Positions 24,647-42,189 of a stretch of DNA of 57,108 bases are shown here, piece by piece; the stretch's first letter is position 1; each line of letters opens with the position of its first letter. The translations under genes were made by a program, and so were the position numbers. A model generated the notes under the pieces. That model was not told the origin of the DNA. It did not search any database and saw nothing but the letters and a program-made list of their open reading frames with translations. This DNA comes from an uncultured Clostridium sp. (GTDB lineage Bacteria; Bacillota; Clostridia; Oscillospirales; CAG-272), in the NCBI GenBank assembly GCA_964567085.1, contig CAZMKU010000002.1, forward strand, positions 1-57,108, in the 5' to 3' direction.

Positions 24647-24710
24647 TAAACATTTATATCGGCGCGGTAATACCGTGCCGATAGCTTCAAAAACTACGAA
24701 AGGCACATCT

Positions 24711-26048
24711 ATGGACTATACGATCAATACTTCGTGCGGCGCCCTGAAGGGCTGCGCCGGACGCGCTTCGGGCATCGCTGCTTACAAAGGAATTCGATAC
24801 GCCACCGCACGCCGATGGGAATATCCGCAAATAGTAACTCATTGGGAAGGCGTTTACGACGCTACCGAGTACGGCGCGTGCAGCTATCAGCCACGCTCCT
24901 TTTACAATGAAGAGGAAAACCTGAAGAAAATATTTTATTACAACGAATTTCGCAAGGGTGAATCATACGCGTACAGCGAGGACTGTCTTTTCTTAAACGT
25001 ATTCACTCCCGAAAACGCGAAGGACGGCGATGACCTGCCCGTTCTCGTTTATATTCACGGCGGCGGATTTACAGGCGGATGCGGCCACGAAAAGCATTTC
25101 GACTGCCCCGAATGGCCGCGTGAAAATATAATCGGCGTTACTATCAATTACCGCCTTGGCCCTATGGGATTTATGTGTCTGCCCGAGCTCAAGGAAGAGG
25201 CAGGACACACGGGCAACTACGGTCTTTTCGACCAAATGACTGCCATCCGGTGGGTAAAGAACAACATTTCGGCATTCGGCGGTGACCCCGATAATATTAC
25301 TATTATGGGACAAAGCGCGGGCGCGGCAAGCGTCCAGCTTCTCTCAACAAGCCCCCTGACCGAAGGATTATTTCAAAAGGCGGTAATGTCAAGCGGATGC
25401 GGTTTGGGCAGCTTTATGTCCGTGAACGCAGAAAAATCCGCGGAATTCTGGCAGCAGATTATGAAAAGATGCGGCTGTGACACTCTTGAACAATTCCGCG
25501 CCCTCCCTCCCGAGAAGCTTTTCGAGGCGTGGCAGACGGGCAAAAAGGAAATTAAGGGCGGAAATGCCGCGACCTTCCCTGTAATCGACAACTACTTCTT
25601 TTCAAAAGACTTTGTTCCGCGCGACATTCCCTATATGGCAGGCTCGACGAGTGAGGATTTGGCGCCTCCCATATTGCACGGTGTGACGAAAAAGTGGATA
25701 TCAAAAAGAAGCACCCCAAGCTACTCCTGGTATTTTGACCGTCGGCTCCCCGGCGACGACTGTGGCGCATGGCATTCCGCAGATCTTTGGTATTGGTTCG
25801 GCACGCTCGATAACTGCTGGCGTCCTATGGAGCATAAGGATCATTCACTTTCCGAGCAAATGGTCAAATACCTCTGCTGCTTTGCTAAAAGCGGAGATCC
25901 CAACGGAGAAGATTTACCCGAATGGACTCCCTCATCAAAAAAGCAAAAGAGAGTTCTTATGCTCGGTGAGAAAGAAACGCATATGGGTAAGCCTCCCGCA
26001 TTAAAAATGATAAAAACCATGCTTACGAGCAAATCCGTGGGCGAATAA
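24711..26048 (+). CDS. Type-B carboxylesterase/lipase family protein
   Basis: Oxyanion-hole motif VYIHGGGF and the nucleophile elbow GQSAGA. The overall length and pattern fit para-nitrobenzyl-esterase-like enzymes. No signal peptide is evident. Confidence 0.85.
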   Translation: MDYTINTSCGALKGCAGRASGIAAYKGIRYATARRWEYPQIVTHWEGVYDATEYGACSYQPRSFYNEEENLKKIFYYNEFRKGESYAYSEDCLFLNVFTPENAKDGDDLPVLVYIHGGGFTGGCGHEKHFDCPEWPRENIIGVTINYRLGPMGFMCLPELKEEAGHTGNYGLFDQMTAIRWVKNNISAFGGDPDNITIMGQSAGAASVQLLSTSPLTEGLFQKAVMSSGCGLGSFMSVNAEKSAEFWQQIMKRCGCDTLEQFRALPPEKLFEAWQTGKKEIKGGNAATFPVIDNYFFSKDFVPRDIPYMAGSTSEDLAPPILHGVTKKWISKRSTPSYSWYFDRRLPGDDCGAWHSADLWYWFGTLDNCWRPMEHKDHSLSEQMVKYLCCFAKSGDPNGEDLPEWTPSSKKQKRVLMLGEKETHMGKPPALKMIKTMLTSKSVGE

Positions 26049-26090
26049 AAATAAACACCTTCGAAGGATTTTCCTTCGAAGGTGTTTTTC
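26046..26090. terminator. Bidirectional intrinsic terminator between convergent genes
   Basis: A perfect 14-bp stem, ACACCTTCGAAGGA-TTT-TCCTTCGAAGGTGT, is flanked by an A-run and a T-run. Confidence 0.85.
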
Positions 26091-26104
26091 TGTATATCGG
26101 GAAA

Positions 26105-27343
26105 TTACTCTGCGGTAAGACCCGAGCGCTCAATACCTTCAACGAGGTATCTCTGCAAAAATGCGTAAAGCACAACAAGAGGTGCTATTATCATAAGAAG
26201 CGACGTATTTCTGATCGTTTCATTATAAAGCGACTGTCCTACGTAGTCAAGTCTCAAGGAATTGGGGATGTCGGTTGCTATATCCTTCAACAAATAGAGA
26301 TTGTTGGTCGATCCCGACTTCCACGTTCCCGAGGTAGTCAAAAATAGCTTTCCTGTGTAGAACGTATCCGTCCACTGCCAGCAGAATGCAAACAGGAACA
26401 CCGTGATCATCATGGGCACGGACATAGGAAGAATGATCTGGAAGAACGTTCTGAAGTCACCCGAGCCGTCGATGTATGCAGATTCTTCAATGGAATCGGG
26501 GATTCCGCGGAAGAACTGACGAAGCATAAAGATATACAAGCCGTTCTTGAACGCAAGACCCGTCAAGGAAAGAATGATGAACGGAACTCTTGTGTTCAAA
26601 AGATTAATGGCGTTATCCTTTGATATCAAAACGATATTTTGCGCATTCTTGGCGAACATCGGACCGAGAACGCTATTATTCTTAAACGTATTCGCAAAGA
26701 ACATCGCGATGTCGTGTAAAAATCCGCCTTCCTTGAATATGTCGATCTTGGCAAGAACCTTATCAACACCCTCGATGCCAACGGATGCGCCGCCCGAAAG
26801 GAAGTTCACTATGCCAAATATATCGAAGGACTTAAAGCCCGTATAAATAGCATAATAAAGCGTCTTGTGAGGAACGACCATCGTAAATATAACGAGAAGG
26901 AATATGATCTTATTGCCCTTGAACTTATATTTAGCAAGACCGTAAGCGACAAGACAGCAGGTAAACGTCTGGAGTACCGCGCACGTAAACGAAAGCCTAA
27001 ACGTATTCCAGAACGCCTTCAGATAGTGGTTTTCCTTGAATATCGCCTTGTACGTGTCAAGCGTAAAATTTCTCGGAATAAGCCTTACCGTCGCGTCAAC
27101 CAAGTCCTCGGGGGACATAAACGAACCCGTTATCTTTGTAAAGAAGGGATAAAGAACTATGTAAGCAATACCAAGCAAGAATATAAATCTTGCGATCTTG
27201 ATTACTACACCCGAAAGAAAGTAGAAATTGAGGAACTTTGCTTTAAGTCTTTCCTTAAGCGGAGTTCTCTCGAACTCAACCCTGATCTTGTTCTTGGATT
27301 CTTTCTTTATTCTGGGAGCAGAATTTGTGTTTTGAACATCCAT
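26105..27343 (-). CDS. Carbohydrate ABC transporter permease with a large internal insertion
   Basis: 412 aa of BPD_transp_1 type with the EAA loop EESAYIDGSGDFRTFFQIILP. About 100 extra residues (FKSFDIFGIV...NAINLLNTRV) sit between the TM segments, compared with the usual ~290-aa CUT1 permease. Confidence 0.85.
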   Translation of the reverse strand: MDVQNTNSAPRIKKESKNKIRVEFERTPLKERLKAKFLNFYFLSGVVIKIARFIFLLGIAYIVLYPFFTKITGSFMSPEDLVDATVRLIPRNFTLDTYKAIFKENHYLKAFWNTFRLSFTCAVLQTFTCCLVAYGLAKYKFKGNKIIFLLVIFTMVVPHKTLYYAIYTGFKSFDIFGIVNFLSGGASVGIEGVDKVLAKIDIFKEGGFLHDIAMFFANTFKNNSVLGPMFAKNAQNIVLISKDNAINLLNTRVPFIILSLTGLAFKNGLYIFMLRQFFRGIPDSIEESAYIDGSGDFRTFFQIILPMSVPMMITVFLFAFCWQWTDTFYTGKLFLTTSGTWKSGSTNNLYLLKDIATDIPNSLRLDYVGQSLYNETIRNTSLLMIIAPLVVLYAFLQRYLVEGIERSGLTAE

Positions 27344-27359
27344 ATCTCTACCTCCTCTC

Positions 27360-28307
27360 TTAGTCTTTACGCTGATAGAATACGAACATTGACATAATAC
27401 CCGCCACTACGGCAATAATGAGCATTACCATCAAGAAATACATCCATGACATCGCAGCGCCAACCTCGGGCTCCTTCTTATTGATATTATCAATAAACGT
27501 CATAACTGTATTATTTTCAGTCGTAAACGCGTCGATTACCGTATACACCGCATTTACGAGGATCATCGGGCTTATCATCGGGAAGGTGATCTTCCAGAAG
27601 GTTTCCCATCCCGTCGCGCCGTCGATCTTACAAGCCTCGTAAATGGCAGGAGAAATCGACTGAAGACCCGAGAGGAATATAAGCATCTGTACGCCCGAAC
27701 GGTTTACAATGTCGTAAATATTATTTATGATCTGAACAACGTATTCTACAAGCTCCTGTCCGACCTTCATATTGGAGAACAGGGCTTCGATGTCCAACGC
27801 CGATACGATATCGGAGGACGCGCTCGACCCCGCGCCACTGTCAATTCCCACGGAATCCGTGGACATTGATGATTCAGTGGGGGTCATAATACCCGTTGCA
27901 AGTACAACAGGAAGGAAGAATATAGCGCGGAACGCTGCTCTTCCCGCCATCTTCTGATTAAGAAGAATAGCCATAAAAAGTGAAAACAGCAAAATAGCAG
28001 GTATATCGAAGATCATCTCGCCAAGACCCGGCAAGAGAGTTTCGAGAAACGCGTGCTCTGTGAGAGCTGTCTGGTAGTTACGGAAGCCTACAAACTCAGG
28101 CTCAAGTCGGATATCCTCCACGAGCATAAACGTGGACTTGAGCGAGTTTACAATAATAGGAAGGTAAACACAAACAAAACCGATTATAAAGGGGAGGACA
28201 AACCACCAGCCCGCGCGAGCCTTTCGCTTATCGAGAGATGCTATTTTCTTTTTCTTGGGAGCGGCATTTCTGCCGCTCTTACATTTAAGCTTTACTTCGC
28301 TTGTCAT
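27360..28307 (-). CDS. Sugar ABC transporter permease
   Basis: CUT1 MalF-like permease with the EAA loop YEACKIDGATGWETFWKITFP. The ATG at 28307 is correctly spaced from AAGGAGGAG, whereas the ORF-track GTG at 28313 is too close to it. Confidence 0.85.
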   Translation of the reverse strand: MTSEVKLKCKSGRNAAPKKKKIASLDKRKARAGWWFVLPFIIGFVCVYLPIIVNSLKSTFMLVEDIRLEPEFVGFRNYQTALTEHAFLETLLPGLGEMIFDIPAILLFSLFMAILLNQKMAGRAAFRAIFFLPVVLATGIMTPTESSMSTDSVGIDSGAGSSASSDIVSALDIEALFSNMKVGQELVEYVVQIINNIYDIVNRSGVQMLIFLSGLQSISPAIYEACKIDGATGWETFWKITFPMISPMILVNAVYTVIDAFTTENNTVMTFIDNINKKEPEVGAAMSWMYFLMVMLIIAVVAGIMSMFVFYQRKD

Positions 28308-28322
28308 ATTCACATCTCCTCC

Positions 28323-31300
28323 TTATTTCTTTATAACTACAAAATCATATGCGGGGATCGTGTAGCGAACACCGTCGTACACGAGCGTTACCATATAGTT
28401 GTTGTAGTTGAGAAGCATCGTCTTATATGCCTCGCCGTCAAGTGTTCCGTACGTTACGGCAATAATATTATCCGTAGCGTAATGGGATTTTTCTTCCTCT
28501 TCCTCTATGACGGTTTCCTCGTCTTCGATCTCAAGCTCAAGTCTTGCTTGAATTTCTTCTTCAGTTATCTTAAGCTCCTCGGGAATATTGCCCGCAAAGG
28601 ACGCGCTGTCAATATAAGCGTTAACTATAGCTTCGAGCGCGATCTTGCTGTCAGTCATAGACTTCATAAGAGTATACTCGGCACGTGTATTTACGTCTTC
28701 GCCCGAGCGGTACATGATCTCACCGTCAGAGTCAAGAATGTAATTGCCCGCCTCGTCAACGAGAGCGTAGATCGTAACGCCGTCAAGCTCGCCCGCTTCC
28801 TTATACTTGATCGCGGTGTAAACAGAACCGTCAAAGAAGTAGTAATCAGCTATCGAGCCATCTTCATTCTTGGAATAGTAGTAATACTGACCGTTAGCCT
28901 TTCTGCTCATATAAACACCGTTACCGCAATCCTTTTCCTCTGAAGGAACAACGATTACGTTCTGGCCATCCAAATTCCAAGCCTCGTCGTCGCCCGCATC
29001 TGCCGCTACGATATCGTAGTACTTGAAATCCTCGATGCTGTTACCTACGAGCGCAACCTTTTCGTCGTCAATGGTAACTACGTAGTAAACCTGGCTACGG
29101 TAAGAGCCCGTCTTATTGCCGTCGGCATCGTATCCGTAGTAACGGATAATATCGCTTCCCTTTGTGGGAATCTTCGTATCGGATGATACAAAAGCAAATC
29201 TTGCCTCTGTAAGAGCGCTCTCTGCAACCGCGATCTGAGATATAGCCTGTTCAGTAAGCGGAAGCGCAGGATTATCAAGCAGCTCTGCGGCCTTGATAAC
29301 CTCAACCGCCTCGTATGCGGAAGCAACCCTTTCGTTGAGCTCCTCAATGGTAGACTTGATCTGTTCAAGGTCCTTAACGAGCTTAACGATAGCAGAAGTC
29401 AATCTGTTCTTCAAGGACTTAACCTGTGTATAAAGCGTCTCATAGCCCTCATCACCCTCGCTCAGTTGTGCAAGAGCAGCGCAATTACTATTATAAGTTG
29501 CAAGGAACTCGTTGATGAGCGCCTCATCCTCCTTAGCCGTTACGCTAAAGATCTTCCAAACCTCTTCATACTGCTTGTTAGCCCAGATCTGAATATCACG
29601 GCATTCCTGTCTTGCTGCAGAAACCTCATTCAGCTTTTCCTGCTTTTCAATTTCAACGATGTTTTCCTGCATATTCTGGAATTCTTCCATTTCCGCAAGA
29701 ATATCACTCTGAATTTCGTCAAGGTCAGGCACACGCTCTGCATTTTCAACGTACTCGTGTCCGATAATGAACTTATCCTGAACGTCATAGAGAGCATCAT
29801 TGAGCTTGTTGTAAATATCAACTATATCATCCTTCCAGATGTCGTATCTTACGGAGTAGTACTTAGAGAAGAACTCGTTTTCCTTAAGATTCTGTGTATT
29901 CCGGTAGGACAGGATAAAGTAGGGGGACGCTCCGTTTTCAATTGCCTTGAGCATTGCGTATTCCATATTACCCTCCATGTTAAGAGGAGAGCCCGCAAAC
30001 TGAACGGAGCCGTGGAGAACGACGCCCAGGAAAGGAACTGATTCGGAGGAGATGTTATAACGCGAGGAGTCAAGAGCAACACCCAAAATATGGTCAACGT
30101 ACTTCCAAGAGTACGAGTTTCCGCCCTGTGTCATAACCTGATTATAGGTATTGTCAAGATACTCGAGCGCGCTGACGGTATAATCCTTGGAGTCTTCTCT
30201 GTTATAAGGCTCATCCTCATCAAAGTCGGAGTTGAGCGTGTAACCGAGCGACGCTACGGAAATACCAATAACGTTGTCGAACTTTTCTGCATAATTCTTC
30301 GTGATCTTTTCGTAGAATCTCGAGAAATATGCGGGAGAAATTGCAAGCTCGTAGTAGTTTACCATACCCTGCGTTGCAGTGTACGTTCTACGGCTCGCGT
30401 AACGGTCGTCGATGGTCTTAACCACGTGCTTGTTGAGGTTAATGCCGTCGAACATACCCGTATACTTAACGTAAGCGAATTCAAAGTCGGGGAAAATACC
30501 GAGATTCGTATTATCTCCCTCGTTTACCTCAGCGGCGTAGTTAAGAAGCTCCTGGAAGCCGCTCTTGCCGCCAACCGCGCTTTCAATCTTAAATCGGTAA
30601 GGAACCTGTGATTCAAGACCTCCGTTCGCATAGCCCGTAAGCTTGAAGTTTACGTTCGTAATGCCGTCCTCTCCCGCGGAAATATCCTCGTACATCGTCC
30701 TTATATCCTCAAAGGTCGTAAGAGGCGTCATCGTCTTTACGGGAATCGAGAGCACCTTTTCAAGCGTCTCGAGCGCGCCGAAGGTTTCAATGTAAAGCGG
30801 GATATCCTCCGTAAGGTCATCGCTCGTAAGAGGTGTCAGTATAGGATCGTCACCCGACATAAGATAATCTCTGTAAGCAACCGCCATACCGAACCAGGAC
30901 GTATCGTACGTCTCGTATTCAGTACCCTCGGGAGCCTCGTAGTCGGAAAGAAGAACGTATCTTATTCTGTAGCTTCCAACGTACTTCTTATCACACGTAA
31001 CCGTCCATTCGTTGTTTTCCTGATTTACGGAAAGCGAATCGGAAATAGTATACGAGTCCGTAGGTCTGGGAGTCACCTTTATCTGGAGCGAGTTATACTC
31101 GCTCTTTGAGCCGTGATGGTTTGTGGAAAGCTCGGAGAGCGCGTCGCCCTCTTCTATTATCGCCACAAAGCCTCTCTTATCGGTAATAGCCTCCTTCGTC
31201 AGCACCGAGCTATTCAAAATATCCGCATACGTAAGATCGGTTCCCGATACGACGAAGCTTCCTATTCTGTTTCTGATCTTCGCGTTAACGGTTTCATCAA

Positions 31301-32678
31301 GGTACTTGTCGGCAAGACCTGCGTTGAGAACTACCTCGAATTCCTCGCCTGTATTATCGTCAACACCCTTGTACTTGTAATAAACCGTTTCTTCAACCGC
31401 GCCGAATACGGGATAAGAAATCGACTTCTGATATTCTCCCGTAACCGCATGGTATGCATAGTCCTGACCGTATACCTTACCGCTTACCGTTTTCGCGGTG
31501 TTGATATTGAGGTCCTGATAATCAAAGAGCGCGCCCGAGCCGTCGGGGAAGAAGTTGTAGCCCTCGTAAGAGTTGCTGCCCGCGCCCATATAAGGGAGAA
31601 CAGTAACGGATTCAAGTCTGTAGAGAGACTCGTTAAATCTGATACCGTTTGCGGGAAGTCTTACGGAAAGACCGTTCTCATCAATGGTATATTCAAGAGC
31701 CATCTTGAACAAGGGGGGATTTGCGTCCTTTGATACGTACTGAGTCTGAGTATGATCCTCTTCAAGATCCTCATAGGTATAATCGGGAGCATAGCTCTTG
31801 ATTATATTTTCGCATCTTGCGAGCTCGTATTCAGTAGCATTGGGGTCAAACACGTAAACCGCCATAGTCTTTGTAGCAGGATACTGGGAATTGATAAGCT
31901 CCTGCTCCTTCTTAGACATATTGGACGTGTCGTAGAACGTGTAATATGCCTGGAATTTTTCAAGCTCGTGTCTTGCGTCTCTGTCACCGGGGGCAATATT
32001 GCTCTCCATAGTGGCGAGAATTTCCTCGAATCTTGACTTTTCAATAAGCATAGGTACAAGCATCTTCGCCTGTTCACGTCCCATTGTGTATTCTACACGA
32101 ATACCGTTTTTGATATTTTTTATCGTTATCTGATTTCTGTAAGCTGCCTCTCTGAAGCTTAAAAACGTATTCGTAACGTTGTCAGAGATGCTTGTGTACT
32201 TAACGATGATCTGAGAGAGAAGCTCTTCCTTTGTGGAGTTATCGTTCTCATCCGCCTTGGAAGCGCCTACGTCGTAAGGATTGGAGAACAATATCTCATC
32301 CGTAACCTTATTTCTGAAAGCAACCTCACCGCTGTAAGAGTCTACGTAAAGCTCGTAATCGCCAACCGTTCTCCTGAGCTCCATCGTTGCGAGCTTTTCC
32401 TCGGGAGTCGCGTAGATAGTCTCCTTATATAAAGTAGCCTTATCTACCGTGGTTGCCTCCTCGGATTCCTCCTCGTCCTCGGCAACCTCGGAGGTATCAG
32501 TCTCCTCCCCGCCGTCTTCGCTGTCCTCACTGTCAGTGAACTCGTCATCCGCAAATTCATCGTCAAGCTCGTCGTCGAACTCATCTGCGGATACGCCAAT
32601 CGTCATCAAAGCTGTCATTGAACCGAGAATTAACAAAACAGTTAAGAGCAGCGATATTATTCTAATGTAATTTTTCAT
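28323..32678 (-). CDS. 1451-aa secreted or anchored protein, DUF5696-like, with an acidic N-terminal tract and an internal coiled-coil
   Basis: N-terminal signal/anchor (IISLLLTVLLILGSMTALMTIGVSA), then a roughly 45-aa Asp/Glu run. Blocks such as LYVDSYSGEVAFRNKVTDEILFSNP and VLPYMGAGSNSYEGYNFFPDGSGALFDY resemble DUF5696 proteins as I remember them. No HMM was run. Confidence 0.55.
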   Translation of the reverse strand: MKNYIRIISLLLTVLLILGSMTALMTIGVSADEFDDELDDEFADDEFTDSEDSEDGGEETDTSEVAEDEEESEEATTVDKATLYKETIYATPEEKLATMELRRTVGDYELYVDSYSGEVAFRNKVTDEILFSNPYDVGASKADENDNSTKEELLSQIIVKYTSISDNVTNTFLSFREAAYRNQITIKNIKNGIRVEYTMGREQAKMLVPMLIEKSRFEEILATMESNIAPGDRDARHELEKFQAYYTFYDTSNMSKKEQELINSQYPATKTMAVYVFDPNATEYELARCENIIKSYAPDYTYEDLEEDHTQTQYVSKDANPPLFKMALEYTIDENGLSVRLPANGIRFNESLYRLESVTVLPYMGAGSNSYEGYNFFPDGSGALFDYQDLNINTAKTVSGKVYGQDYAYHAVTGEYQKSISYPVFGAVEETVYYKYKGVDDNTGEEFEVVLNAGLADKYLDETVNAKIRNRIGSFVVSGTDLTYADILNSSVLTKEAITDKRGFVAIIEEGDALSELSTNHHGSKSEYNSLQIKVTPRPTDSYTISDSLSVNQENNEWTVTCDKKYVGSYRIRYVLLSDYEAPEGTEYETYDTSWFGMAVAYRDYLMSGDDPILTPLTSDDLTEDIPLYIETFGALETLEKVLSIPVKTMTPLTTFEDIRTMYEDISAGEDGITNVNFKLTGYANGGLESQVPYRFKIESAVGGKSGFQELLNYAAEVNEGDNTNLGIFPDFEFAYVKYTGMFDGINLNKHVVKTIDDRYASRRTYTATQGMVNYYELAISPAYFSRFYEKITKNYAEKFDNVIGISVASLGYTLNSDFDEDEPYNREDSKDYTVSALEYLDNTYNQVMTQGGNSYSWKYVDHILGVALDSSRYNISSESVPFLGVVLHGSVQFAGSPLNMEGNMEYAMLKAIENGASPYFILSYRNTQNLKENEFFSKYYSVRYDIWKDDIVDIYNKLNDALYDVQDKFIIGHEYVENAERVPDLDEIQSDILAEMEEFQNMQENIVEIEKQEKLNEVSAARQECRDIQIWANKQYEEVWKIFSVTAKEDEALINEFLATYNSNCAALAQLSEGDEGYETLYTQVKSLKNRLTSAIVKLVKDLEQIKSTIEELNERVASAYEAVEVIKAAELLDNPALPLTEQAISQIAVAESALTEARFAFVSSDTKIPTKGSDIIRYYGYDADGNKTGSYRSQVYYVVTIDDEKVALVGNSIEDFKYYDIVAADAGDDEAWNLDGQNVIVVPSEEKDCGNGVYMSRKANGQYYYYSKNEDGSIADYYFFDGSVYTAIKYKEAGELDGVTIYALVDEAGNYILDSDGEIMYRSGEDVNTRAEYTLMKSMTDSKIALEAIVNAYIDSASFAGNIPEELKITEEEIQARLELEIEDEETVIEEEEEKSHYATDNIIAVTYGTLDGEAYKTMLLNYNNYMVTLVYDGVRYTIPAYDFVVIKK

Positions 32679-32701: not shown

Positions 32702-34855
32702 TTAAAGTCGGAACCGAATTTCTGTAACGATATTTGTTACGAGACTCACCATCTTCGAAATAAGCGTCGAGAACAAAATCGCAATAAACATAATAAAGAT
32801 CATCGCAACCGCGGTGCCCGCGATAGTGATTATATTCTTACCCATCGTGTAATCGTGTGTAACCTGCGTACCGAAGAAGATAAGCAATGCAAGCCAGATA
32901 AACGCAAACGTCGTAATAAGGTTGATAATGCTTATTTCCGTAGAGATGCAGAAGTTCGAAAAGATCGTCACGGGGATAATAAGGATCGGCAGGGGAAGCA
33001 AGCTGTAAGAGCAAGCAATGAAGATGTCCTTGAAGCTACCTTCACCCTCAAAAAGCGTGGTAAGACACCAGTTTGCAACTACGAAAAGGAAGAGCGGAAC
33101 GAGAACGCTGAGCGCCTGACCCCAGATAGTTCCGTAATTGCCCTCGGGATTCATAAGATAGCCCGAGCCAACCGACTGGTAGAAGAACGCGATAATTGTA
33201 ACCGCGATATATACGAGCGACGCTCTTATCGAGCCGCGCTTTTCGTGCTTCAGATCCCAGAAGCCGTCAAACGGATGGACCATAACGTAGAAGCCGTATG
33301 CAAGCTCCTCGCCAAATGTCTTCTTTTTACCCGAAACCGCTGCAGCCTTATTGACCTTCGTAATAAACTTATTGAAGAGAACAACGCCTGCGATAATAAC
33401 GCCTATGATCGCGATAAGAACGAGGAAGTAATTTGACATCCATTCCTTTCTTATTTCCTTATAGGAGTTAGACCAGTTTTCCGTGTCGTACGCGGATTCG
33501 AAGTATTCAAGCGACCTTTCATAGTCACCGTTTCTGTACATAGCCTGACCGATACCTACGTAAGCCGCGTCGAAGTTCGAGTTGGACTTAAGCACGTCGG
33601 TCCATTTGTTGATAGCCGTATCGAAGTCCTGATCGTTTTCAGCCGCAATAGCCTCAAGGATCGTATCGCCGTATGGCTCGCGCTTAAATACGGTAAAGTT
33701 ATTTGTTGACTGCGAGGAGTCAAGGACGAGCATCTTGTCGCCCTGATAGGTAATAGCCGTGATTCTCACGATGCTTCCCATCATATTACCCGTTTCGCCA
33801 AAGGCAAAGAGCAGGTTGCCGTTCTTATCGTAGGTGTAGATACGGCTTCTCTTCTGGTCGATGATCGACCATGTTCCCTCTTCTCCCTCCGCAACGTCTA
33901 CGATCTTGGATACGCCGTTGTCATCAGCATCAGCGTCCTTGGAGGCGTTGCTGTAGTCGATCTCACCGACAGGCGGCCAGAATCCGTTACGCGCCATGAT
34001 CTCGTCACCGCTCGTGTTGAGCTTCTTAACGGGCATATACGTACCGTCCGTAGCCTTCGCCAGGATCTGGCTCTGAACCGTAGCCTCGGAAATAGTCGAC
34101 GTGGTTACGTAGATAAATCCGTCGGAGCTGAGCGCGATATTGTTAAACTCGGTAGATACGTTTTCCGTCTGCTGAGACTGCTGCTCTTCTGTACGAAGCT
34201 TTCTCCAGATCTTTTCCCACGCGGAAATTTCAGTTGCCTGCGCGCCGATAAATTTCTGGAACTGACCGTTATCGGTCAATATGATAATACCCTGATAGGT
34301 GGATGCGGATACAACGAAAAGTCTGTTGTATGCGTCAACCGCAAGCGCTATGGGCTCATACTTCGCATCGTCGCCAAAAAGGCTTGATTCGGGCGCTTCG
34401 AGTATTTTCTTGAAGCTGCCGTCGAGATTGAACGCAACTATTCGGGATTTGCCGGTGTCGCACACCCAGATCGTATCGTCGCTTACGAACACGCCCTTGG
34501 GGCCCGAAAGTGTATCGTCGTTGCCGACGCTGTTCTTGAACGTAGAGATCTCGAACTTGAATTCATAGTATCTCGAAAGAACCACGATTCTGTTGTTACC
34601 CGTGTCCGCGATATATACGTTACCTGATTTATCGGTAATAATATCGCTGGGAGAATTCAAGGCAACCTCGAGTCCCATTTTTTCGGAGTCTATCGTATCC
34701 TCAACGTCATACGCGTCAGGAGAAAGAAGCGGATATCCGTCGATAGAATACGTGTACGTCTGATAAGCAGATGATGCCTGAGCTCCTATTATTGCGCAGG
34801 AGGCGATCATAATTACTGCAAATACAACGCACAATATTCTTGTGATGTTTTTCAT
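32702..34855 (-). CDS. Fusion protein: signal peptide, NHL-repeat beta-propeller, TPR, and a Yip1-type 5-TM domain
   Basis: NHL-like repeats (GNVYIADTGNNRIVVL, IWVCDTGKSRIVAFN, NRLFVVSAS...). A TPR-like segment (AINKWTDVLKSNSNFDAAYVGIGQAMYRNGDYERSLEYFE). The Yip1 hallmark HPFDGFWDLKHEKRGS is followed by multiple TM helices. Confidence 0.7.
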   Translation of the reverse strand: MKNITRILCVVFAVIMIASCAIIGAQASSAYQTYTYSIDGYPLLSPDAYDVEDTIDSEKMGLEVALNSPSDIITDKSGNVYIADTGNNRIVVLSRYYEFKFEISTFKNSVGNDDTLSGPKGVFVSDDTIWVCDTGKSRIVAFNLDGSFKKILEAPESSLFGDDAKYEPIALAVDAYNRLFVVSASTYQGIIILTDNGQFQKFIGAQATEISAWEKIWRKLRTEEQQSQQTENVSTEFNNIALSSDGFIYVTTSTISEATVQSQILAKATDGTYMPVKKLNTSGDEIMARNGFWPPVGEIDYSNASKDADADDNGVSKIVDVAEGEEGTWSIIDQKRSRIYTYDKNGNLLFAFGETGNMMGSIVRITAITYQGDKMLVLDSSQSTNNFTVFKREPYGDTILEAIAAENDQDFDTAINKWTDVLKSNSNFDAAYVGIGQAMYRNGDYERSLEYFESAYDTENWSNSYKEIRKEWMSNYFLVLIAIIGVIIAGVVLFNKFITKVNKAAAVSGKKKTFGEELAYGFYVMVHPFDGFWDLKHEKRGSIRASLVYIAVTIIAFFYQSVGSGYLMNPEGNYGTIWGQALSVLVPLFLFVVANWCLTTLFEGEGSFKDIFIACSYSLLPLPILIIPVTIFSNFCISTEISIINLITTFAFIWLALLIFFGTQVTHDYTMGKNIITIAGTAVAMIFIMFIAILFSTLISKMVSLVTNIVTEIRFRL

Positions 34856-34872: not shown

Positions 34873-35745
34873 TTAGTCTTTCATACCGCTGGATCCCATC
34901 GTTTCAATAATGTTGGACTGGGATACAACGAATACCAGAATAGGTACCATCATCATAATAACCTGAGATGCCGCCGATGCGCCCGCGCGCTTGATACCGC
35001 CCGCGGTGATCTGTCCGATAGCGTAGTTAAAGGACTTGAGCTGCTCGGAGTGAATATACATCGAAGAGCCCTGATTCCAGAGTGACTGGAACGAATAAAT
35101 GATAAGCGTAAGCCAAGCAGGCTTAACCATAGGCATCGCGATCACCCAATAGGTTCGAAGCTCGCCCGCGCCGTCAAGACGCGCGGATTCAAGAACCGTG
35201 TCGGGAACGTTCGTGTCCATAAACTGCTTCATAAGGTAAAGACCGAGCGTAGATGCCCATGCGGGAACGATAATTGCAAGGTAAGAGTCAAGCCAACCGA
35301 ATGCAGACATTATAATAAAGGAAGTAATCGTTGTAACCGTGGAGTTAAACATAAGAGAAGTCTGCACGAGCTGGAACATTCCCTTCGCACCGGGGAACTT
35401 GATCTTTGCAAGCGTGTAGGCTGCCAGGGAAGCGATGAACAGGTGTCCGAACGTTCCTGCAACCGAGGTGAATATCGTGTTGAATATGTATCTTGAGAAC
35501 GGAGCCACCGAAGTATTCATAAGCATAAAAAGTGACTTGAAGTTATTGAGCGTAGGGCTCATAACTATGAATTTCGGAGGATACATCCAAAGCTCGTCAA
35601 GAGGCTTTAACGACTGCATTATAACGTAAAACATCGGAAGGAACATAAACAATCCGAGAATTACGAGTATGACCGTAATGAACGCGTCGCCTCCTGCGGA
35701 GCGGGCAAGTACGACTTTATGTTTTCTGGTTCTGAGCTTTGCCAT
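34873..35745 (-). CDS. Carbohydrate ABC transporter permease (MalG-like)
   Basis: 290 aa with 6 TM segments and the EAA loop LESARLDGAGELRTYWVIAMP. Its start lies 1 nt after the upstream permease stop. Confidence 0.9.
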   Translation of the reverse strand: MAKLRTRKHKVVLARSAGGDAFITVILVILGLFMFLPMFYVIMQSLKPLDELWMYPPKFIVMSPTLNNFKSLFMLMNTSVAPFSRYIFNTIFTSVAGTFGHLFIASLAAYTLAKIKFPGAKGMFQLVQTSLMFNSTVTTITSFIIMSAFGWLDSYLAIIVPAWASTLGLYLMKQFMDTNVPDTVLESARLDGAGELRTYWVIAMPMVKPAWLTLIIYSFQSLWNQGSSMYIHSEQLKSFNYAIGQITAGGIKRAGASAASQVIMMMVPILVFVVSQSNIIETMGSSGMKD

Positions 35746-35746
35746 A

Positions 35747-36691
35747 TTACGTACCTACCTTCGAGAGTATTTTCTTAACGAGAGCATTCGCGCCGATCAT
35801 TATCACGAACAGCACCACGGCAATAGCCGACGCGTAGCCCGTCTCGTATCTCATACCGCCGTAGTCACTCAGATGGTGCATGATCGTGTGACACGAATAG
35901 TTTACAGACGGGAATCCGCAGAGCGCGTCAACGACGCCGCCGAAGCCGAACGAGCCCGTAATCGCCATTACGGCACCGAACATAAGCTGAGGCTTCATGG
36001 ACGGGAGCGTTATGTAATAAAGCTCCTGCCATCTGTTCTTAATTCCGTCAACCGCGCCAGCCTCGTAAAGCGAACGGTCAACGCCCTGAAGTCCCGCGAT
36101 AAAGGACAGGAAGGATGTACCAAGAGACGTCCAGAGCGCAACGACTATACAGAGCGCCATGGCGTATTCTTCTCTTTGGAAGAAGTTGATTTCCTCTTCT
36201 ATGAGGTTATATTCAAGAAGCATAGCGTTTACCCAACCGTAGGAGTCGCCCGAGAAGAGCGTACCCCAGATAAGATATACGTTACCTGAAATAGAGGGGG
36301 CGTAGAATACAAGGGTTACGACCGCTCTTATCTTGGGAGGAAGCTCGTTGATGAACCACGCTACCAGGAAGGACATAAGGTAGGATGCAGGTCCTACTAT
36401 GCAGGCAAATATAAACGTATTCTTGCATGCAGTTAAGAATATATCGTCATCGAAGAACAAAGTTATGTAGTTATCCAAAAATACAAAATCAGGGGCCTGA
36501 AGCATATTGAAGTCCGTAAAGCTAAGCGCTATGGAAAGCAATACAGGAAGCACCGTGAAGATCGTGAAAAGAATCATATAGGGCGCAACCATAACGTATG
36601 CTATCCAGTTACGCTTCATTTCTTTCCAAACCCACTGCGCCATCGTCATATCCTTTCGGGCCGCAGCTTGTTTTTCTGCTTTCTTAAGCAT
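35747..36691 (-). CDS. Sugar ABC transporter permease (MalF-like)
   Basis: 314 aa with the EAA loop YEAGAVDGIKNRWQELYYITLP. The RBS is AAAGGAGAG. Confidence 0.9.
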   Translation of the reverse strand: MLKKAEKQAAARKDMTMAQWVWKEMKRNWIAYVMVAPYMILFTIFTVLPVLLSIALSFTDFNMLQAPDFVFLDNYITLFFDDDIFLTACKNTFIFACIVGPASYLMSFLVAWFINELPPKIRAVVTLVFYAPSISGNVYLIWGTLFSGDSYGWVNAMLLEYNLIEEEINFFQREEYAMALCIVVALWTSLGTSFLSFIAGLQGVDRSLYEAGAVDGIKNRWQELYYITLPSMKPQLMFGAVMAITGSFGFGGVVDALCGFPSVNYSCHTIMHHLSDYGGMRYETGYASAIAVVLFVIMIGANALVKKILSKVGT

Positions 36692-36739: not shown

Positions 36740-39700
36740 TCAATACTTTGACATCGCGTTTGCCGCATCGCTGAGCGCTACGGAAAGGAAGTAGAGAACG
36801 TTGTCCTCGCCGAATCTGTTCGTATCAGCGATATCCTTGTTCTGAACCTGCATTGTTTTAATATTCATCGCATCGCCCTTAAGGTCGGTCTTTGCAGACT
36901 CGCCTACAAGAGCCGCAACCTCTTCGGCAGCCTCGCGGATCGTCGTCATATCGTCGCTCTTGATAGCGGATCTCACCTTATTAAGAAGAGCGGTATTTTC
37001 AAATCCTCTTTCTACGAGCGAGTCAACAGCTTTCTGCGCCTGAGAAAGTCGCTTGGATGCAAGTGTTTCACCCTGCTCAAGCGTTTCAAGTCCGAATTCG
37101 GTTCTCTTTCTGGAAATTTCCTTGTTGATCGTGTTAATGTAAGAAAGCAAAGCTTGCTTGGGATCTTCCTTATCGTTATATGCCGACAGGAATGCAAAGT
37201 TTGTATAACGCGCGACAATATACGCGCCGGGATAGTTGGGGATAGCAGCAAGTCCGTCGAGACCTCCGGGGCCGTCGTGACCCTCGATCTGAGCCGAGAT
37301 CTGAGCGAATTCCTCCTGTGTCCAAGGCAAGCTTTCAAGAGCGTCAATGTTTGCCGTGGGGTGCTTTGCGGAGGGACCCATAATAGCAACCATCTCGTTG
37401 GTGTACTCCGTCTGGCAGTCCTTACCCGTATACCACTTCATAAATTCCCAAGCGTCCTCTCTCTGATCCTCCGCGCCCTTAACCATTACGGTTGCGGCAA
37501 CACCCGAGATGGACTGGTTATTTATCACGCCGTCCTCGTTCTCAATACCGGGCAGCGGAACGAATTCCCAAAGGCCCTCGATTTCCGTGGCGAATACCTT
37601 GAGCTGATTGTAAAGACCCGTGTAGTCACCGATCAAGATAGGCATTTCACCCGTTCTGAAACGGTTTGCAGCGTCGTAAACGTAGGGGAACTTATAGTCC
37701 GTAAACAGCTTACACATCTTTTCAAAGGACTCAAGACCCACCTTCGAATCGAGATTGATTCTCATACCGTCATCAGCGAAAAGGTCACCGCCCATCTGGT
37801 AGAGGAACATTCTGTATTCAGTCGTAAGACCGATCTCCATCTCTCTTGCCTGAAGCAGAGGAATGAGCGCCATTACGTCCTCCCACGTTTCGGGAATAAC
37901 ATTTTCGTCGACCTCGTCACCGTCACTCATTTCACTGTAAAGGTCGGCAAGCACGTCCGTACGAACGAACATCATCGCGAATGACTGAACCTCGGGAAGA
38001 CCGTAATAGTGTCTTACACCCTCCGCGTCCTCAATACCGAGAACCAGCATAGCCGCGTTGGTAAAGGATTTCGTTACCTCCTCAAATCCGTCGTTTTCCT
38101 CAATAGGAAGAACCGCCGAACGGATCGCGTAGTTGATAACGTCGTCCTGTCCGAGAGAGAGATACACGTCAGGTCCCTCACCCGCCAAGATCGAGGGAAG
38201 AAGCGTACCGCCCGCTACGAGCTTAAGATCCACCGTTATACCGGTAGAATTTGTAAAGTCATTATTTATAAGGTTACGAACGACCTGGAACTGATCTCGT
38301 CCCGAAGCCATCCAAACCTCGACGCCCTCAACCTCCTCAGTGGTCGTAGCGCCTATCGCGTTATAGTCACGCGTAAAGCTTGCAAAGAAGGATTTCACCT
38401 CATGCCAGAGCGCCTTGAAGAAGCCTGCGCCCGCCTTGGGCATATCCTCCTCGGGAGACTGAATAATAAGGTAGTCCATCTGCAAGGGCTGTGTCTTTGC
38501 ATCCGAGAGGAAGGTACCGAGCGTACCGATATAGGATTTAAGACGGGAGAGATTCTGCGCGATCTCGCTCTCGTCAACAGCCATCGTATGAAGCAGGTCC
38601 GCTATCTTCTGGAGCGTACCGACGTTCGCGGACTTCTGTCCCGCGAGCTCGGTCAATACCTGAGCAACACCCGGCTCGGGATAGGCCTCACTGGGCTCGT
38701 TGTCGAGAATTCTCGACTGCTTGTTCATATCAACGAGCACGTTATACATAATTCTCTTGAAGCCGTAGTCACGGTCAGCGTCGGGAGTCGTACCCGTAAG
38801 CTGAATAATGGAAAGGTAATCGTCGTTGATGCTATCAAGACATTCCTGAACCTTATTTACGATCTCGCCCATCTCGCCGAGGGTAACCTCAAGCTTTATC
38901 GTGTAAACGACGCCTTCCTTGAAGTAGATCTGATAGCCGTCGTCCGAGTCGGAATTTCTTAAGTCCGTAACCTGCCAGTTATCACTGTAATTATATACAA
39001 GCGCCTTCGCTTCCTCGAAGGGAATACCGTTATAATAACCCGCTTCGCCCTCGCTCACGCCTTCGCCGCTGTAAATGTAAAGCGCGCGGTTTACGTACAT
39101 ACCGTCAAGAACGTTCTGTCTGAATCTCGTAACGATATCGTAAAGACCGCTCTCCCCTTCACCGAGCCGGAACTTATAGGTGATAGCCTGACCCGCCGTC
39201 TGCCACTTGGACTCACCTATAGTGTTGAGCAAGGTCACCTCGGGGCTCGAGGGGGACGTTGCCGCGCTGGATCTGTCCTCAAGCGCGTATATCGTCTTGT
39301 CAGTCGTTGTATTCGTAAATTCGGCCTCGATCTTGATGCTGCCCGTTCCGTTGGAAACGTCACCGAGAGCCGCTCTATATTCCTCATACGTAGGAATTTC
39401 TTCCGCGGGACAAAGGGTAATACTCTTTATCGCCATATCCTCGTTCTTGCCCTCGAGAGTAATGGTATTGACCTTACCCGCCTCGAACACGAACTCAAAG
39501 GGTGACGAATAGAAGCCCATGCTGTCCTTGATCTGATATTCGGACCAGATAGGAGCCTGCTCGGCGTCGGGACGAAGCTCGTTGCCCCAAACGTCAACCT
39601 TCATAAATCTGATCGAATACTTCTGGCAGAAATCAGAAGCCGCCTCGGTCCAGATCTCAGGATACTCGAACGCAAGATTTCCGTCGGCGTTGATCTTTGC

Positions 39701-40288
39701 AACAAGACCTGCCGCCTCGCCCTCGCTCCTGACGGTGGATTCATCCTCCTTGCCCGTATAAACGCCATCCTGGTAAAGATTTATCCAGTTTTTCTGGAAC
39801 GCAAGATAGCGAGCCTCCTTGAAAGGAACCTCATCGTTGATCCTGAGCACTCTCTCTATAGCCGCAGGCTTACCTTCAACCGCATAGTACTCAATAACGA
39901 TCGTGTACATTGCGGTCTCGGGAACCTCAAATGCCCAAGTAACAGAGCCCGAACCCGACGTGTAAAGTGCCTCTACGCCGCCGTAGGTGTCGACCTTCCA
40001 ATCGGAGCTCTGCTCGGAAACGAGATCATTTACCGCATCAATGACAACCGTATTCCCAGCCTTTGCGGGCGACACACCAATCGCGCCCGACAAATACTCA
40101 TCGTAGGAAATGGCATTGAGCAGTTCTCTTATTTCCTGAATTTTGCTGGTATTAGCCGTTGAGGAGCTCGAGCTCGATGACGTGGCGGTAGAGCTCTCCT
40201 CGGCAAACGCCGGCAATGAAAAACAACCAATAACAAACATCAAACAAAGCAACATTGCTGTTAATCTTTGAAATTTCGTCTTTCCCAT
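36740..40288 (-). CDS. Giant (1182-aa) extracellular solute-binding protein with N-terminal CBM-like modules
   Basis: The start is set at the ATG at 40288 (MGKTKFQRL..., AGGAGGA RBS, signal peptide ...LPAFAEESS). The C-terminal ~550 aa resemble family-1 SBPs (GPDVYLS, ETWEDVMAL, AWEFMKWYTG). The N-terminal ~600 aa carry two beta-sandwich/CBM6-35-like patterns (SGSGSVTWAFEVPETAMYTIVIEYYA; GSIKIEAEFTN). Confidence 0.8.
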   Translation of the reverse strand: MGKTKFQRLTAMLLCLMFVIGCFSLPAFAEESSTATSSSSSSSTANTSKIQEIRELLNAISYDEYLSGAIGVSPAKAGNTVVIDAVNDLVSEQSSDWKVDTYGGVEALYTSGSGSVTWAFEVPETAMYTIVIEYYAVEGKPAAIERVLRINDEVPFKEARYLAFQKNWINLYQDGVYTGKEDESTVRSEGEAAGLVAKINADGNLAFEYPEIWTEAASDFCQKYSIRFMKVDVWGNELRPDAEQAPIWSEYQIKDSMGFYSSPFEFVFEAGKVNTITLEGKNEDMAIKSITLCPAEEIPTYEEYRAALGDVSNGTGSIKIEAEFTNTTTDKTIYALEDRSSAATSPSSPEVTLLNTIGESKWQTAGQAITYKFRLGEGESGLYDIVTRFRQNVLDGMYVNRALYIYSGEGVSEGEAGYYNGIPFEEAKALVYNYSDNWQVTDLRNSDSDDGYQIYFKEGVVYTIKLEVTLGEMGEIVNKVQECLDSINDDYLSIIQLTGTTPDADRDYGFKRIMYNVLVDMNKQSRILDNEPSEAYPEPGVAQVLTELAGQKSANVGTLQKIADLLHTMAVDESEIAQNLSRLKSYIGTLGTFLSDAKTQPLQMDYLIIQSPEEDMPKAGAGFFKALWHEVKSFFASFTRDYNAIGATTTEEVEGVEVWMASGRDQFQVVRNLINNDFTNSTGITVDLKLVAGGTLLPSILAGEGPDVYLSLGQDDVINYAIRSAVLPIEENDGFEEVTKSFTNAAMLVLGIEDAEGVRHYYGLPEVQSFAMMFVRTDVLADLYSEMSDGDEVDENVIPETWEDVMALIPLLQAREMEIGLTTEYRMFLYQMGGDLFADDGMRINLDSKVGLESFEKMCKLFTDYKFPYVYDAANRFRTGEMPILIGDYTGLYNQLKVFATEIEGLWEFVPLPGIENEDGVINNQSISGVAATVMVKGAEDQREDAWEFMKWYTGKDCQTEYTNEMVAIMGPSAKHPTANIDALESLPWTQEEFAQISAQIEGHDGPGGLDGLAAIPNYPGAYIVARYTNFAFLSAYNDKEDPKQALLSYINTINKEISRKRTEFGLETLEQGETLASKRLSQAQKAVDSLVERGFENTALLNKVRSAIKSDDMTTIREAAEEVAALVGESAKTDLKGDAMNIKTMQVQNKDIADTNRFGEDNVLYFLSVALSDAANAMSKY

Positions 40289-40654
40289 TAAAAACTTTCC
40301 TCCTGCTGATTTTTTCGGCGGATAAGCCGCCATTTAGGTAAAGCTTACGCATAATGCAGCGCGATACACGTAAACCGGATAATAAATAATAGCAATCCCT
40401 TGCGGTAAAAGGAAAAACCACTATAAACGCCGAACGGCGTCCTCTGGCACGCGGCAACAACACTATGCTATGCAATTGACTGTAAATTTCCGACGCCCCA
40501 CGAGTCCGAACCCTCAAGGATAGCGAAAATTCACATTTAAACACGGACAAACGCGAGGTTTCGAAGCCGTTGGCAAAAAATCACACCGTCCGCGCCAAAC
40601 TCAGGTCATCGCATAACAAATTCGTTGCGCACTATGCCCTAAATTTACTCTAAT

Positions 40655-41489: not shown

Positions 41490-42131
41490 TTATCCAATAA
41501 TATTTTCCAATTCGGAGAAATCATCAAACACGAAAGCGCCGCAGGCCTCAAGTCTCGCTCTATCCTGATGTCCGCCCGCAAACAGAGCGCAGTCCGCGCC
41601 AAGTATTTGAGAAACCTCGTAATCGTGAGTGGTATCGCCTATATAGAGCGCCCTCGCATCGGGATTGCTTTCGCGCCAAGCCCTCGCAAGCTCTCCCTTA
41701 CCCGCGGCGTGAATGTTGGTAAGACCTATTACCTCGGTGAAATGCTCATAAACGTCAAGCTGGCGCAGTTGATCCGTCAGCATACCTATCTCGCACGCCG
41801 ACAAAACGAGCTGATCTATTCCCCTTCCCCGAATATATTCAAGCAGCTCTCTGACCCCGCGAACGATCTTCGGGTCCCTAGTATGCTCAAGATAAAGCTC
41901 CACCCACTCAACCGCAAGCACGTCGTAAGGCGTTTTGGTAAAATCAAATCCGATTCTCTCGTAGTAATCCTTAACGGGAAATCCGAACGCCCTCCTGTAG
42001 GTATCCGTATCGGGAATTTTCGGCACACCGTACTTTTCGAGCAAAGCATTCACACTAACAATGCCGGGCTCGACGTCATCGAGAATAGTCCCGTTAAAAT
42101 CCCAGATTATATGGGTATATTTATTATTCAT
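41490..42131 (-). CDS. HAD-superfamily hydrolase (phosphoglycolate phosphatase-like) with motif I DFNGT
   Basis: The ATG at 42131 (MNNKYTHIIWDFNGTILDD) has a GGAGA RBS. Motif II is VLSAC, with K...GDTTHD as motifs III/IV. The 97-aa Arg-rich N-terminal extension in the ORF track overlaps the upstream SBP gene and is spurious. Confidence 0.85.
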   Translation of the reverse strand: MNNKYTHIIWDFNGTILDDVEPGIVSVNALLEKYGVPKIPDTDTYRRAFGFPVKDYYERIGFDFTKTPYDVLAVEWVELYLEHTRDPKIVRGVRELLEYIRGRGIDQLVLSACEIGMLTDQLRQLDVYEHFTEVIGLTNIHAAGKGELARAWRESNPDARALYIGDTTHDYEVSQILGADCALFAGGHQDRARLEACGAFVFDDFSELENIIG

Positions 42132-42150
42132 TATTATTTCTCCAAAATAA

Positions 42151-42174
42151 CAGCCCCCACGCGCGTGAGGGCTG
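42151..42174 (-). terminator. Intercistronic hairpin or partial terminator between the SBP and HAD genes
   Basis: The minus-strand RNA reads CAGCCC-UCACGCGCGUGG-GGGCUG followed by UUAUUUU. Confidence 0.45.
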
Positions 42175-42189
42175 TATAAAATCAAATTC

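Follow-up and report, generated by a model that had tools for sequence, protein, structure and literature searches.

The stretch of DNA analysed here, referred to as the window, comprises 57,108 nucleotides from an uncultured Clostridium sp. (GTDB lineage Bacteria; Bacillota; Clostridia; Oscillospirales; CAG-272), taken from NCBI GenBank assembly GCA_964567085.1, contig CAZMKU010000002.1, positions 1 to 57,108 of the forward strand. Its minus strand carries a run of seven close-packed genes, the fourth of which encodes a protein of 717 amino acids (aa) in which an NHL propeller and a pair of TPR-like hairpins are joined through a transmembrane (TM) helix to a Yip1 domain; this protein is called NTY in what follows. 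An initial annotation, made from the letters alone, had placed an open reading frame (ORF) of 717 aa at positions 32702-34855. The ORF is present as described, on the minus strand, which that annotation did not give, and the three motifs quoted from it, GNVYIADTGNNRIVVL, IWVCDTGKSRIVAFN and HPFDGFWDLKHEKRGS, are all found in the NTY translation. The gene starts with an ATG at 34855, preceded 7 nt upstream by AGGAGG; 17 nt separate this start from the stop codon of the preceding permease gene, and 23 nt lie between the end of NTY and the next gene, which has a Shine-Dalgarno site of its own. From the N terminus the domain order is signal peptide, six-bladed NHL propeller, two TPR-like hairpins, a first TM helix (TM1), an HPFDGFWDLK motif and a Yip1 domain of five TM helices. 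The earlier description of the protein was right overall, and had overlooked TM1 (residues ~476-494) as well as the strand. The gene and the parts of its product are located as follows, with the evidence for each in brackets.

32702..34855, minus strand: whole NTY gene, 717 codons, NHL-propeller/TPR/TM/Yip1 (ORF and translation, Shine-Dalgarno site, Pfam domains)
34775..34855, minus strand: signal sequence, residues 1-27, with n-region K2/R6, hydrophobic core and AQA/SS (hydropathy; helix 2-26 in the model)
33680..34765, minus strand: predicted extracytoplasmic six-bladed NHL beta-propeller, residues 31-392 (Pfam NHL, PDB sequence matches, AlphaFold2 (AF2) model and Foldseek)
34148..34243, minus strand: conserved helical insertion between blades 3 and 4, residues 205-236, WRxFxTxEQ...PTEFNN (alignments of relatives)
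33485..33679, minus strand: two TPR-like helical hairpins, residues 393-457 (sub-cut-off Pfam TPR, PDB matches, model)
33374..33430, minus strand: TM1, residues ~476-494, running from outside to inside (hydropathy; stays with the propeller half in split forms)
33233..33316, minus strand: cytoplasmic segment, residues 514-541, rich in Lys, in which two amphipathic helices and the near-invariant HPFDGFWDLKHEKRG motif are found (charge count, alignments)
32780..33289, minus strand: Yip1 domain (PF04893), residues 523-692, with five TM helices, the NWCLTTLxEGEG loop, P621, E640, H667 and E712 (Pfam, hydropathy, model, conservation)

As the initial annotation had stated, NTY sits between two permease pairs and beside a DUF5696-like neighbour: two BPD_transp_1 proteins are encoded on each side, and the gene directly downstream matches DUF5696 with an E-value of 5e-126. 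Together with NTY, the following genes make up the operon, referred to below as the cassette.

36740..40333, minus strand: giant solute-binding protein (SBP) of 1197 aa, whose SBP fold occupies residues 682-972; first gene of the operon (Pfam)
34873..36691, minus strand: permease pair A, MalF/UgpA-type (PermA1, 35747-36691) and MalG/UgpE-type (PermA2, 34873-35745) (Pfam BPD_transp_1)
28323..32678, minus strand: DUF5696 protein, 1451 aa, N-terminally anchored, with a GH129/GH101-like fold, directly downstream of NTY (Pfam; model)
26105..28313, minus strand: permease pair B, MalF-type and MalG-type (PermB1, 27360-28313; PermB2, 26105-27343) (Pfam BPD_transp_1)

The partners of NTY are type I importer permeases and an SBP, not an exporter of the MacB type, and neither a membrane-fusion protein (MFP) nor an FtsX/MacB permease was found in the operon. 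Profile-profile comparison identifies pairs A and B as parallel copies, PermA1 matching PermB1 and PermA2 matching PermB2. No ATPase or regulator gene is present among the seven genes; MalK-type ATPase genes are found elsewhere in the same genome (1.66 Mb, 88% complete). Profile searches of this genome yield a single DUF5696 gene and a single Yip1 gene, the latter search pointing to the same NTY region.

Apart from a signal or anchor sequence at its N terminus, the DUF5696 protein contains no TM helix. No sequence homologue of it was found in the PDB, either with the single sequence or with a profile. The AF2 model of its core (pTM 0.80) matches in Foldseek, in this order, GH129 (NagBb, 5wzp, E 4.7e-16; ZgGH129, 5opq), GH101, and GH31 and GH36. 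Given this GH129/GH101-like modelled fold and the N-terminal anchor, the cassette may be described as an outward glycosidase-shaped protein combined with two importers.

Domain architecture of NTY

The hydrophobic stretch at the N terminus of NTY (residues 1-27 by hydropathy) has a predicted cleavage site, in agreement with the signal sequence proposed earlier, and the signal peptide is probably cleaved after export. It contains a lipobox look-alike at Cys20 (IASC), which is not kept in relatives.

The initial annotation had made its proposal depend on the NHL and Yip1 assignments, and profile scores for both lie above the Pfam cut-offs. NHL (PF01436) is matched with an E-value of 1.3e-11 and 44.4 bits against a cut-off of 20, and in the PDB the sequence matches six-bladed NHL propellers of the PknD and Pizza types (E 1e-24 to 7e-11). 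An AF2 model of NTY, obtained with 50 homologues (mean pLDDT 79.5, pTM 0.64), contains six four-stranded blades between residues 33 and 392, blade 6 probably being closed by the N-terminal YxTYTY strand, and is matched by the NHL propellers of TRIM71, Brat, Thin and Pizza6 (Foldseek E 3e-15, target-normalised TM-score 0.75-0.79). The insertion at residues 205-236 is modelled with low confidence (pLDDT 54-64) despite its sequence conservation.

Concerning the TPR pair, the earlier claim finds support in PDB matches and modelled helices, whereas the Pfam scores stay under the gathering cut-offs (TPR_16, E 1.4e-6, 29.0 against 32.7; TPR_2, E 2e-4, 21.5 against 27). Consensus TPR proteins in the PDB match residues 409-460 with an E-value of 4e-14 (phmmer), and four antiparallel helices are modelled at residues 394-454, which is why we call residues 393-457 a TPR-like pair. 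In the AF2 model this bundle runs unbroken into a single helix, residues 458-507, that contains TM1, and the propeller would therefore be held near the outer membrane face.

A propeller of this kind might be taken for an enzyme (lactonase, lyase or esterase) similar to SMP-30/gluconolactonase or Vgb lyase, which would attack the glycan in concert with the DUF5696 protein. Such a reading can draw on a weak SGL match (PF08450, E 3e-5, 24.1 bits), on database names such as 'sugar lactone lactonase YvrE' and 'gluconolactonase', and on virginiamycin B lyase, which appears among the lower Foldseek matches. However, the SGL score falls under the Pfam cut-off of 26.3, the best fold matches are non-enzymatic NHL domains, and no His, Glu or Cys of the ectodomain is conserved in at least 90% of 170 aligned sequences; on these grounds a catalytic role of the propeller was rejected as very unlikely. 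The same 170 sequences contain no conserved cluster of His, Cys, Glu or Asn in the ectodomain, where the positions conserved to at least 90% are Gly, Pro, aromatics and the blade Asp residues D71, D84, D133, D333 and D379.

Two weak matches to neighbouring Pfam accessions were also seen, one a sub-threshold match to DUF7485 at NTY residues 322-349 (window 33809-33892, E 0.003), the other to DUF7484 in the N-terminal half of the SBP, residues 342-454 (window 38972-39310, E 0.1). The two accessions are consecutive, and both families may derive from one protein set.

The orientation of NTY in the membrane follows from the segment after TM1. Residues 495-544 contain 10 Lys/Arg against 5 Asp/Glu, so that by the positive-inside rule this loop is predicted to be cytoplasmic; the propeller and TPR region would therefore lie outside, as would the C terminus of Yip1. 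The outward-facing propeller of the initial annotation agrees with this charge distribution. In the AF2 model two amphipathic helices at residues 514-537 bear HPFDGFWDLKHEK. The cytoplasmic motif is invariant in two alignments of relatives, and across the 170 sequences P528 is conserved to 98% and G531 to 92%.

The Yip1 domain is matched with an E-value of 1.4e-13 and 51.6 bits against a cut-off of 28.6, over profile positions 2-172 of 173. The five C-terminal hydrophobic helices reported earlier are seen by hydropathy after the HPFDG motif, and fall between residues 545 and 700 in the hydropathy profile and in the model. Positions of the Yip1 half conserved to at least 90% include P528, G531, N595, W596, G604, G606, P621, E640, H667 and E712. 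All domains of NTY are about equally conserved among the 170 sequences, the cytoplasmic motif and the EGEG loop matching the ectodomain in this respect, which suggests that the Yip1 part is more than an anchor.

This conserved cytoplasmic surface, formed by HPFDGFWDLK, EGEG and H667, is what a transmembrane sensor or gate would need, in which a ligand or partner bound by the propeller sends its signal through TM1 and Yip1, and the cytoplasmic face modulates the ATPase or the permeases, or allots the ATPase between the importers. Among bacterial NHL relatives of solved structure the sensor domain of PknD is the nearest, and an operon devoid of ATPase and regulator, with MalK-type ATPases encoded elsewhere, would also suit such a device. 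Against it, NTY contains no known signalling domain, and the HPF segment lies within the generic Yip1 profile (positions 2-20) and may be a structural feature of the whole family. We regard a sensor or gate as distinctly improbable.

Family size, gene order and split forms

The fusion had been described as unusual, which does not hold: the propeller-Yip1 protein is the main form of a very large family, whose members are also found as two adjacent genes. A word-based search gave 4367 relatives among 8000 scored candidates, the best 120 of which share the length and domains of NTY. An exhaustive HMMER search of representatives clustered at 50% identity gave 1475 clusters at E < 1e-30, with at least 150 end-to-end matches down to 30% identity. 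The HPFDGFWD motif marks relatives in more than 580 species-level genomes (the motif-based locus search for NTY relatives was built on an alignment of 9 sequences). In an even sample of the class, NTY was found in 84 of 399 genomes and 49 of 217 genera, and in a phylum-wide sample in ~33 of 401 genomes; these genome-search counts are lower bounds, two candidates having been scored per genome.

Carriers include Mahella australiensis (two copies), Mageeibacillus indolicus, Caldicoprobacter guelmensis, Caldicellulosiruptor bescii, C. kronotskyensis, Thermoclostridium stercorarium, Fastidiosipila sanguinis, a Butyrivibrio sp. and many Paenibacillus species. The names given to the relatives in the source annotations vary from 'YIP1 family protein' and 'NHL repeat-containing protein' to 'gluconolactonase', 'sugar lactone lactonase YvrE', 'YncE' and 'hypothetical'. 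Some members reach 880-1000 aa through extensions of 200-300 residues before the propeller (P0130, P0132 and P0179). A fusion to a permease was considered for the longer members (760-998 aa) and rejected, the N-terminal extensions having no Pfam match and no BPD_transp_1 domain. The NTY of the window is an ordinary member of a large family that has never been characterised biologically.

The order SBP, PermA1, PermA2, NTY, DUF5696, PermB1, PermB2 is strictly kept. Among loci with enough flanking DNA, it is found in 80 of 80 at 49-77% identity and in 19 of 20 at 25-37% identity, these belonging to other families of the class and the twentieth being a decayed copy; it also occurs in C. bescii, in two Paenibacillus species and in another Bacillota lineage. 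The SBP gene comes first in every locus whose flanking DNA is long enough. The presence of NTY is likewise tied to that of DUF5696: of the genomes in the same class sample, 80 have full-length DUF5696 (E < 1e-80), 84 have NTY and 79 have both. In the five genomes with NTY only, DUF5696 is matched in part or not at all, several of these cases lying at contig ends, and the sole genome with DUF5696 only is 73% complete. This strict gene order (more than 100 loci, to 25% identity) and the near one-to-one co-occurrence with DUF5696 both back the earlier suggestion that the transport system includes NTY as an accessory membrane component. Judged from these comparisons, NTY appears to be a fixed accessory part of a 'twin importer' glycan-uptake cassette that is widespread in Gram-positives.

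Relatives of ~570-600 aa that match only positions ~190-612 of the DUF5696 profile (E ~1e-40) occur in genomes without NTY (e.g. G103:C3:183893-185176), and probably represent a paralogous glycosidase-like family outside the cassette.

The cassettes differ in their second SBP. In 7 of 10 distant loci tested, from Mahella, M. indolicus, T. stercorarium and Butyrivibrio, an SBP of normal size follows PermB2, and it is missing from the window's cassette and its close relatives. After PermB2 the window has a convergent carboxylesterase gene and no second SBP (24675-26105). The first 600 aa of the giant SBP were searched for a second SBP fold able to serve pair B, and the idea was rejected (hhalign probability 1%; nothing with relaxed Pfam). 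Because the second SBP is missing and the next gene encodes a carboxylesterase, pair B appears to be without a dedicated SBP in the window's clade.

The two permease pairs also differ in conservation, pair A showing 47-53% identity against 33-37% for pair B between distant cassettes, and 75-77% against 52-58% between close ones. So wide a gap in favour of pair A suggests unequal constraints on the two importers.

Around the cassette, GH31 or RGL11-like genes adjoin it in other loci. In the window, the genes for a 664-aa membrane-anchored protein, with no significant Pfam match, and for a HAD-family hydrolase lie upstream (41490-44184), and they stand beside the cassette only in the nearest relatives (L019, L020, L024). 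The finished genome of T. stercorarium contains a second copy of the cassette (L103, G257:C1:733000-753000) in which each of the SBP, NTY, DUF5696 and PermB1 genes is split or truncated, apparently a paralogous cassette in decay.

In roughly 30 of the 84 carrier genomes of the class sample, NTY is represented by two adjacent genes, the first encoding propeller, TPR and TM1 (~490-560 aa) and the second Yip1 (~205-250 aa), with the break point in the cytoplasmic loop after TM1. The split carriers include finished genomes, some from cultured strains, namely those of T. stercorarium, where the two genes overlap by 4 nt (L102), F. sanguinis and Paenibacillus. Found both fused and split, the two halves form a classic fusion/fission pair, which shows that they work together, in a linkage that need not be covalent.

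Stand-alone close relatives of the Yip1 half (query residues 470-717) were sought by a word-based search and dismissed: the matches were mostly pieces of full-length family members on short contigs, and their contexts showed contig-edge genes, frameshifts or in-frame stops, all of them inside the cassette. Sporadic in-frame stops and frameshifts in close relatives of NTY were treated as errors or decay. In two independent assemblies (L084:9960-10010 and L085:9960-10010), in-frame stops fall in adjacent codons of the linker just before TM1, a TAG in place of an Asn codon and a TAA in place of the next Ser codon, and each yields a secreted propeller-TPR protein of 458 aa and a TM1-Yip1 protein of 245/246 aa. 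Chance, sequencing error or recurrent selection for fission at the linker could account for them.

Split forms and conservation bear on a further reading, in which NTY is a glycan receptor whose lectin-like propeller binds a poly- or oligosaccharide on the cell surface and passes it to the SBP or to the DUF5696 protein, Yip1 being merely the anchor. Beta-propellers often bind carbohydrate, the surroundings of the cassette are those of glycan utilisation (in C. bescii a xylan locus, elsewhere GH31 or RGL11-like neighbours), and the ectodomain diverges at about the pace of the SBP fold, as expected if it tracked the substrate. Yet one TM helix would be enough for an anchor, whereas the five-TM Yip1 domain and the cytoplasmic motif are strongly conserved, and Yip1 is retained as a separate gene in the split forms. 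In addition, there is no carbohydrate-binding module (CBM) or lectin family among the Pfam matches, and the nearest folds are NHL domains that bind protein or RNA. A glycan receptor is the leading rival explanation and, on this evidence, an unlikely one.

Known systems and a possible role for NTY

The closest described setting of the family is the xylan degradation locus of C. bescii, which contains the operon xloEFG-X-GH129-axoFGE, is assigned to the regulators XynR and AraR, and is induced on xylan and Avicel (Rodionov et al. 2021, PMC8579813). In the supplements of that work X is Athe_0177, described as an 'NHL repeat-containing protein' and given no role. In RNA-seq its transcripts rise on xylan and Avicel together with those of both importers and of the 'GH129' gene, and on xylan their counts are similar in magnitude to those of the structural genes. 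Athe_0177 (ACM59329) resembles NTY from end to end (28% identity, E 3e-100) and holds the same position in the cassette; the gene after it is annotated as DUF5696. The C. bescii cassette has a second SBP (AxoE), followed by xylanase genes, whereas that of the window has no second SBP, no recognisable carbohydrate-active enzyme (CAZyme) adjoining it, and much larger DUF5696 and SBP proteins.

The initial annotation knew of no description of such a role. This agrees with the C. bescii orthologue, which is listed without a function, and disagrees with YknW, a described Yip1 accessory of an ATP-binding cassette (ABC) exporter. YknW belongs to the Yip1 family and is an accessory subunit of the B. 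subtilis YknXYZ exporter (Yamada et al. 2012, as cited in PMC4887032 and PMC4338810); according to the same sources it associates with the transporter complex and modulates its assembly. Like NTY, it is a polytopic Yip1-family membrane protein encoded in an ABC-transporter operon. Unlike NTY, it is a small protein lacking an ectodomain, the transporter it serves is a MacB-type exporter with an MFP, and the likeness between the two is known at the level of the Pfam family. NTY is set apart by its propeller/TPR ectodomain of 460 residues, its extra TM helix and its place in a type I (CUT1) importer cassette, where two permease pairs and a glycosidase-like protein accompany it. We place the NTY family among the Yip1 accessories of ABC transporters, a kind already represented by the YknW subunit.

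No bacterial Yip1 protein with a described role was found in the literature besides YknW. Yip1 genes have been recorded beside ABC transporters in bacteriocin clusters and an archaeal Yip1 cassette has been described; the literature records found for Yip1 concern neither importers nor a propeller fusion. Searches combining NHL repeat with Caldicellulosiruptor, Yip1 with stercorarium, or 'YIP1 family protein' with SBP and permease found no publication, no paper mentioning DUF5696 was found, and the locus tags Athe_0177/0178 and Csac_2415/2416 gave no main-text mention.

Two further comparisons concern single domains. Eukaryotic Yip1/YIPF proteins, which interact with Rab in the ER and Golgi, share with NTY the PF04893 domain, five TM helices and a cytoplasmic N-terminal segment; they lack the NHL/TPR ectodomain, and bacteria have neither Rab GTPases nor vesicle traffic, the fold being common and the pathway not. 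The sensor domain of M. tuberculosis PknD (PDB 1rwi) is, like the ectodomain propeller of NTY, a six-bladed extracytoplasmic NHL propeller tethered by one TM helix (sequence match E 7e-11); it is joined to a cytoplasmic kinase, whereas the propeller of NTY is joined to a Yip1 bundle. The conserved helical insertion between blades 3 and 4 and the TPR stalk distinguish NTY from both PknD and the TRIM-NHL proteins.

NTY might also act outside the working transporter, as a biogenesis factor that aids the export, folding or anchoring of the giant SBP and the DUF5696 protein. TPR modules are common in chaperone-like proteins, and NTY is always paired with a large, N-terminally anchored DUF5696 protein and an SBP of ~1000 aa. 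The modulation of assembly reported for YknW (PMC4887032) points the same way. On the other side, the transcripts of Athe_0177 on xylan are about as abundant as those of the structural genes, unlike the catalytic amount expected of a chaperone, and neither Pfam nor Foldseek shows a likeness to known insertases or foldases; we give this explanation a slim chance.

We favour a reading in which NTY, itself non-catalytic, serves as a scaffold or adaptor linking the surface enzyme and the binding protein to the two importers, and put its probability at about 45%. Below it we rank the glycan receptor, followed by the transmembrane gate, the biogenesis factor and the enzyme. After export, the six-bladed propeller would stand on its short TPR bundle close to the outer membrane face, while the Yip1 bundle and TM1 would pack against the permease dimers in the membrane, in the way that YknW reportedly associates with YknXYZ. 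The platform formed by propeller and TPR would bind a protein partner, either the DUF5696 ectoenzyme or the giant SBP, so that capture, trimming and import of oligosaccharides could take place in one surface complex, which would be the Gram-positive equivalent of the SusCD 'utilisome' of Bacteroidetes. The cytoplasmic face would contact the cytoplasmic loops of the permeases or a shared MsmK-type ATPase encoded elsewhere, contacts suggested by the conservation of that face.

Three points weigh against the scaffold. Operon membership and co-occurrence indicate a shared function, which is not the same as a scaffold role, and the exporter served by YknW is mechanistically different, being of the MacB type. 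Moreover, the divergence rate of NTY is close to that of the SBP fold and of permease pair B and exceeds that of pair A, and conservation therefore favours neither a protein partner nor a glycan ligand.

A more specific form of the scaffold reading, which we advance tentatively and hold to be doubtful, sees NTY as the membrane scaffold of a Gram-positive 'utilisome'. Within a stable supercomplex at the surface, it would hold a GH129-like ectoenzyme and one or two SBPs over two different ABC importers, a complex oligosaccharide being trimmed and its two products imported side by side, with the cytoplasmic Yip1 face coordinating the shared ATPase.

Hardly any function has been assigned to the Yip1-domain proteins of bacteria; an exporter accessory is the sole precedent. 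The cassette occurs in about a fifth of the sampled Clostridia, including many uncultured fibre degraders of gut and rumen, as well as in the biotechnologically used genera Caldicellulosiruptor, Thermoclostridium and Paenibacillus. The role of NTY is directly testable in C. bescii, which carries the cassette and for which genetic tools and published expression data exist. If NTY is the scaffold of a utilisome, the ancient Yip1 fold would gain a concrete role in bacteria, that of organising multi-protein membrane complexes, and an enzyme and two importers united in one machine would change the picture of glycan capture in Gram-positives. It would also explain a gene that is now annotated as 'gluconolactonase', 'YncE' or 'hypothetical'.

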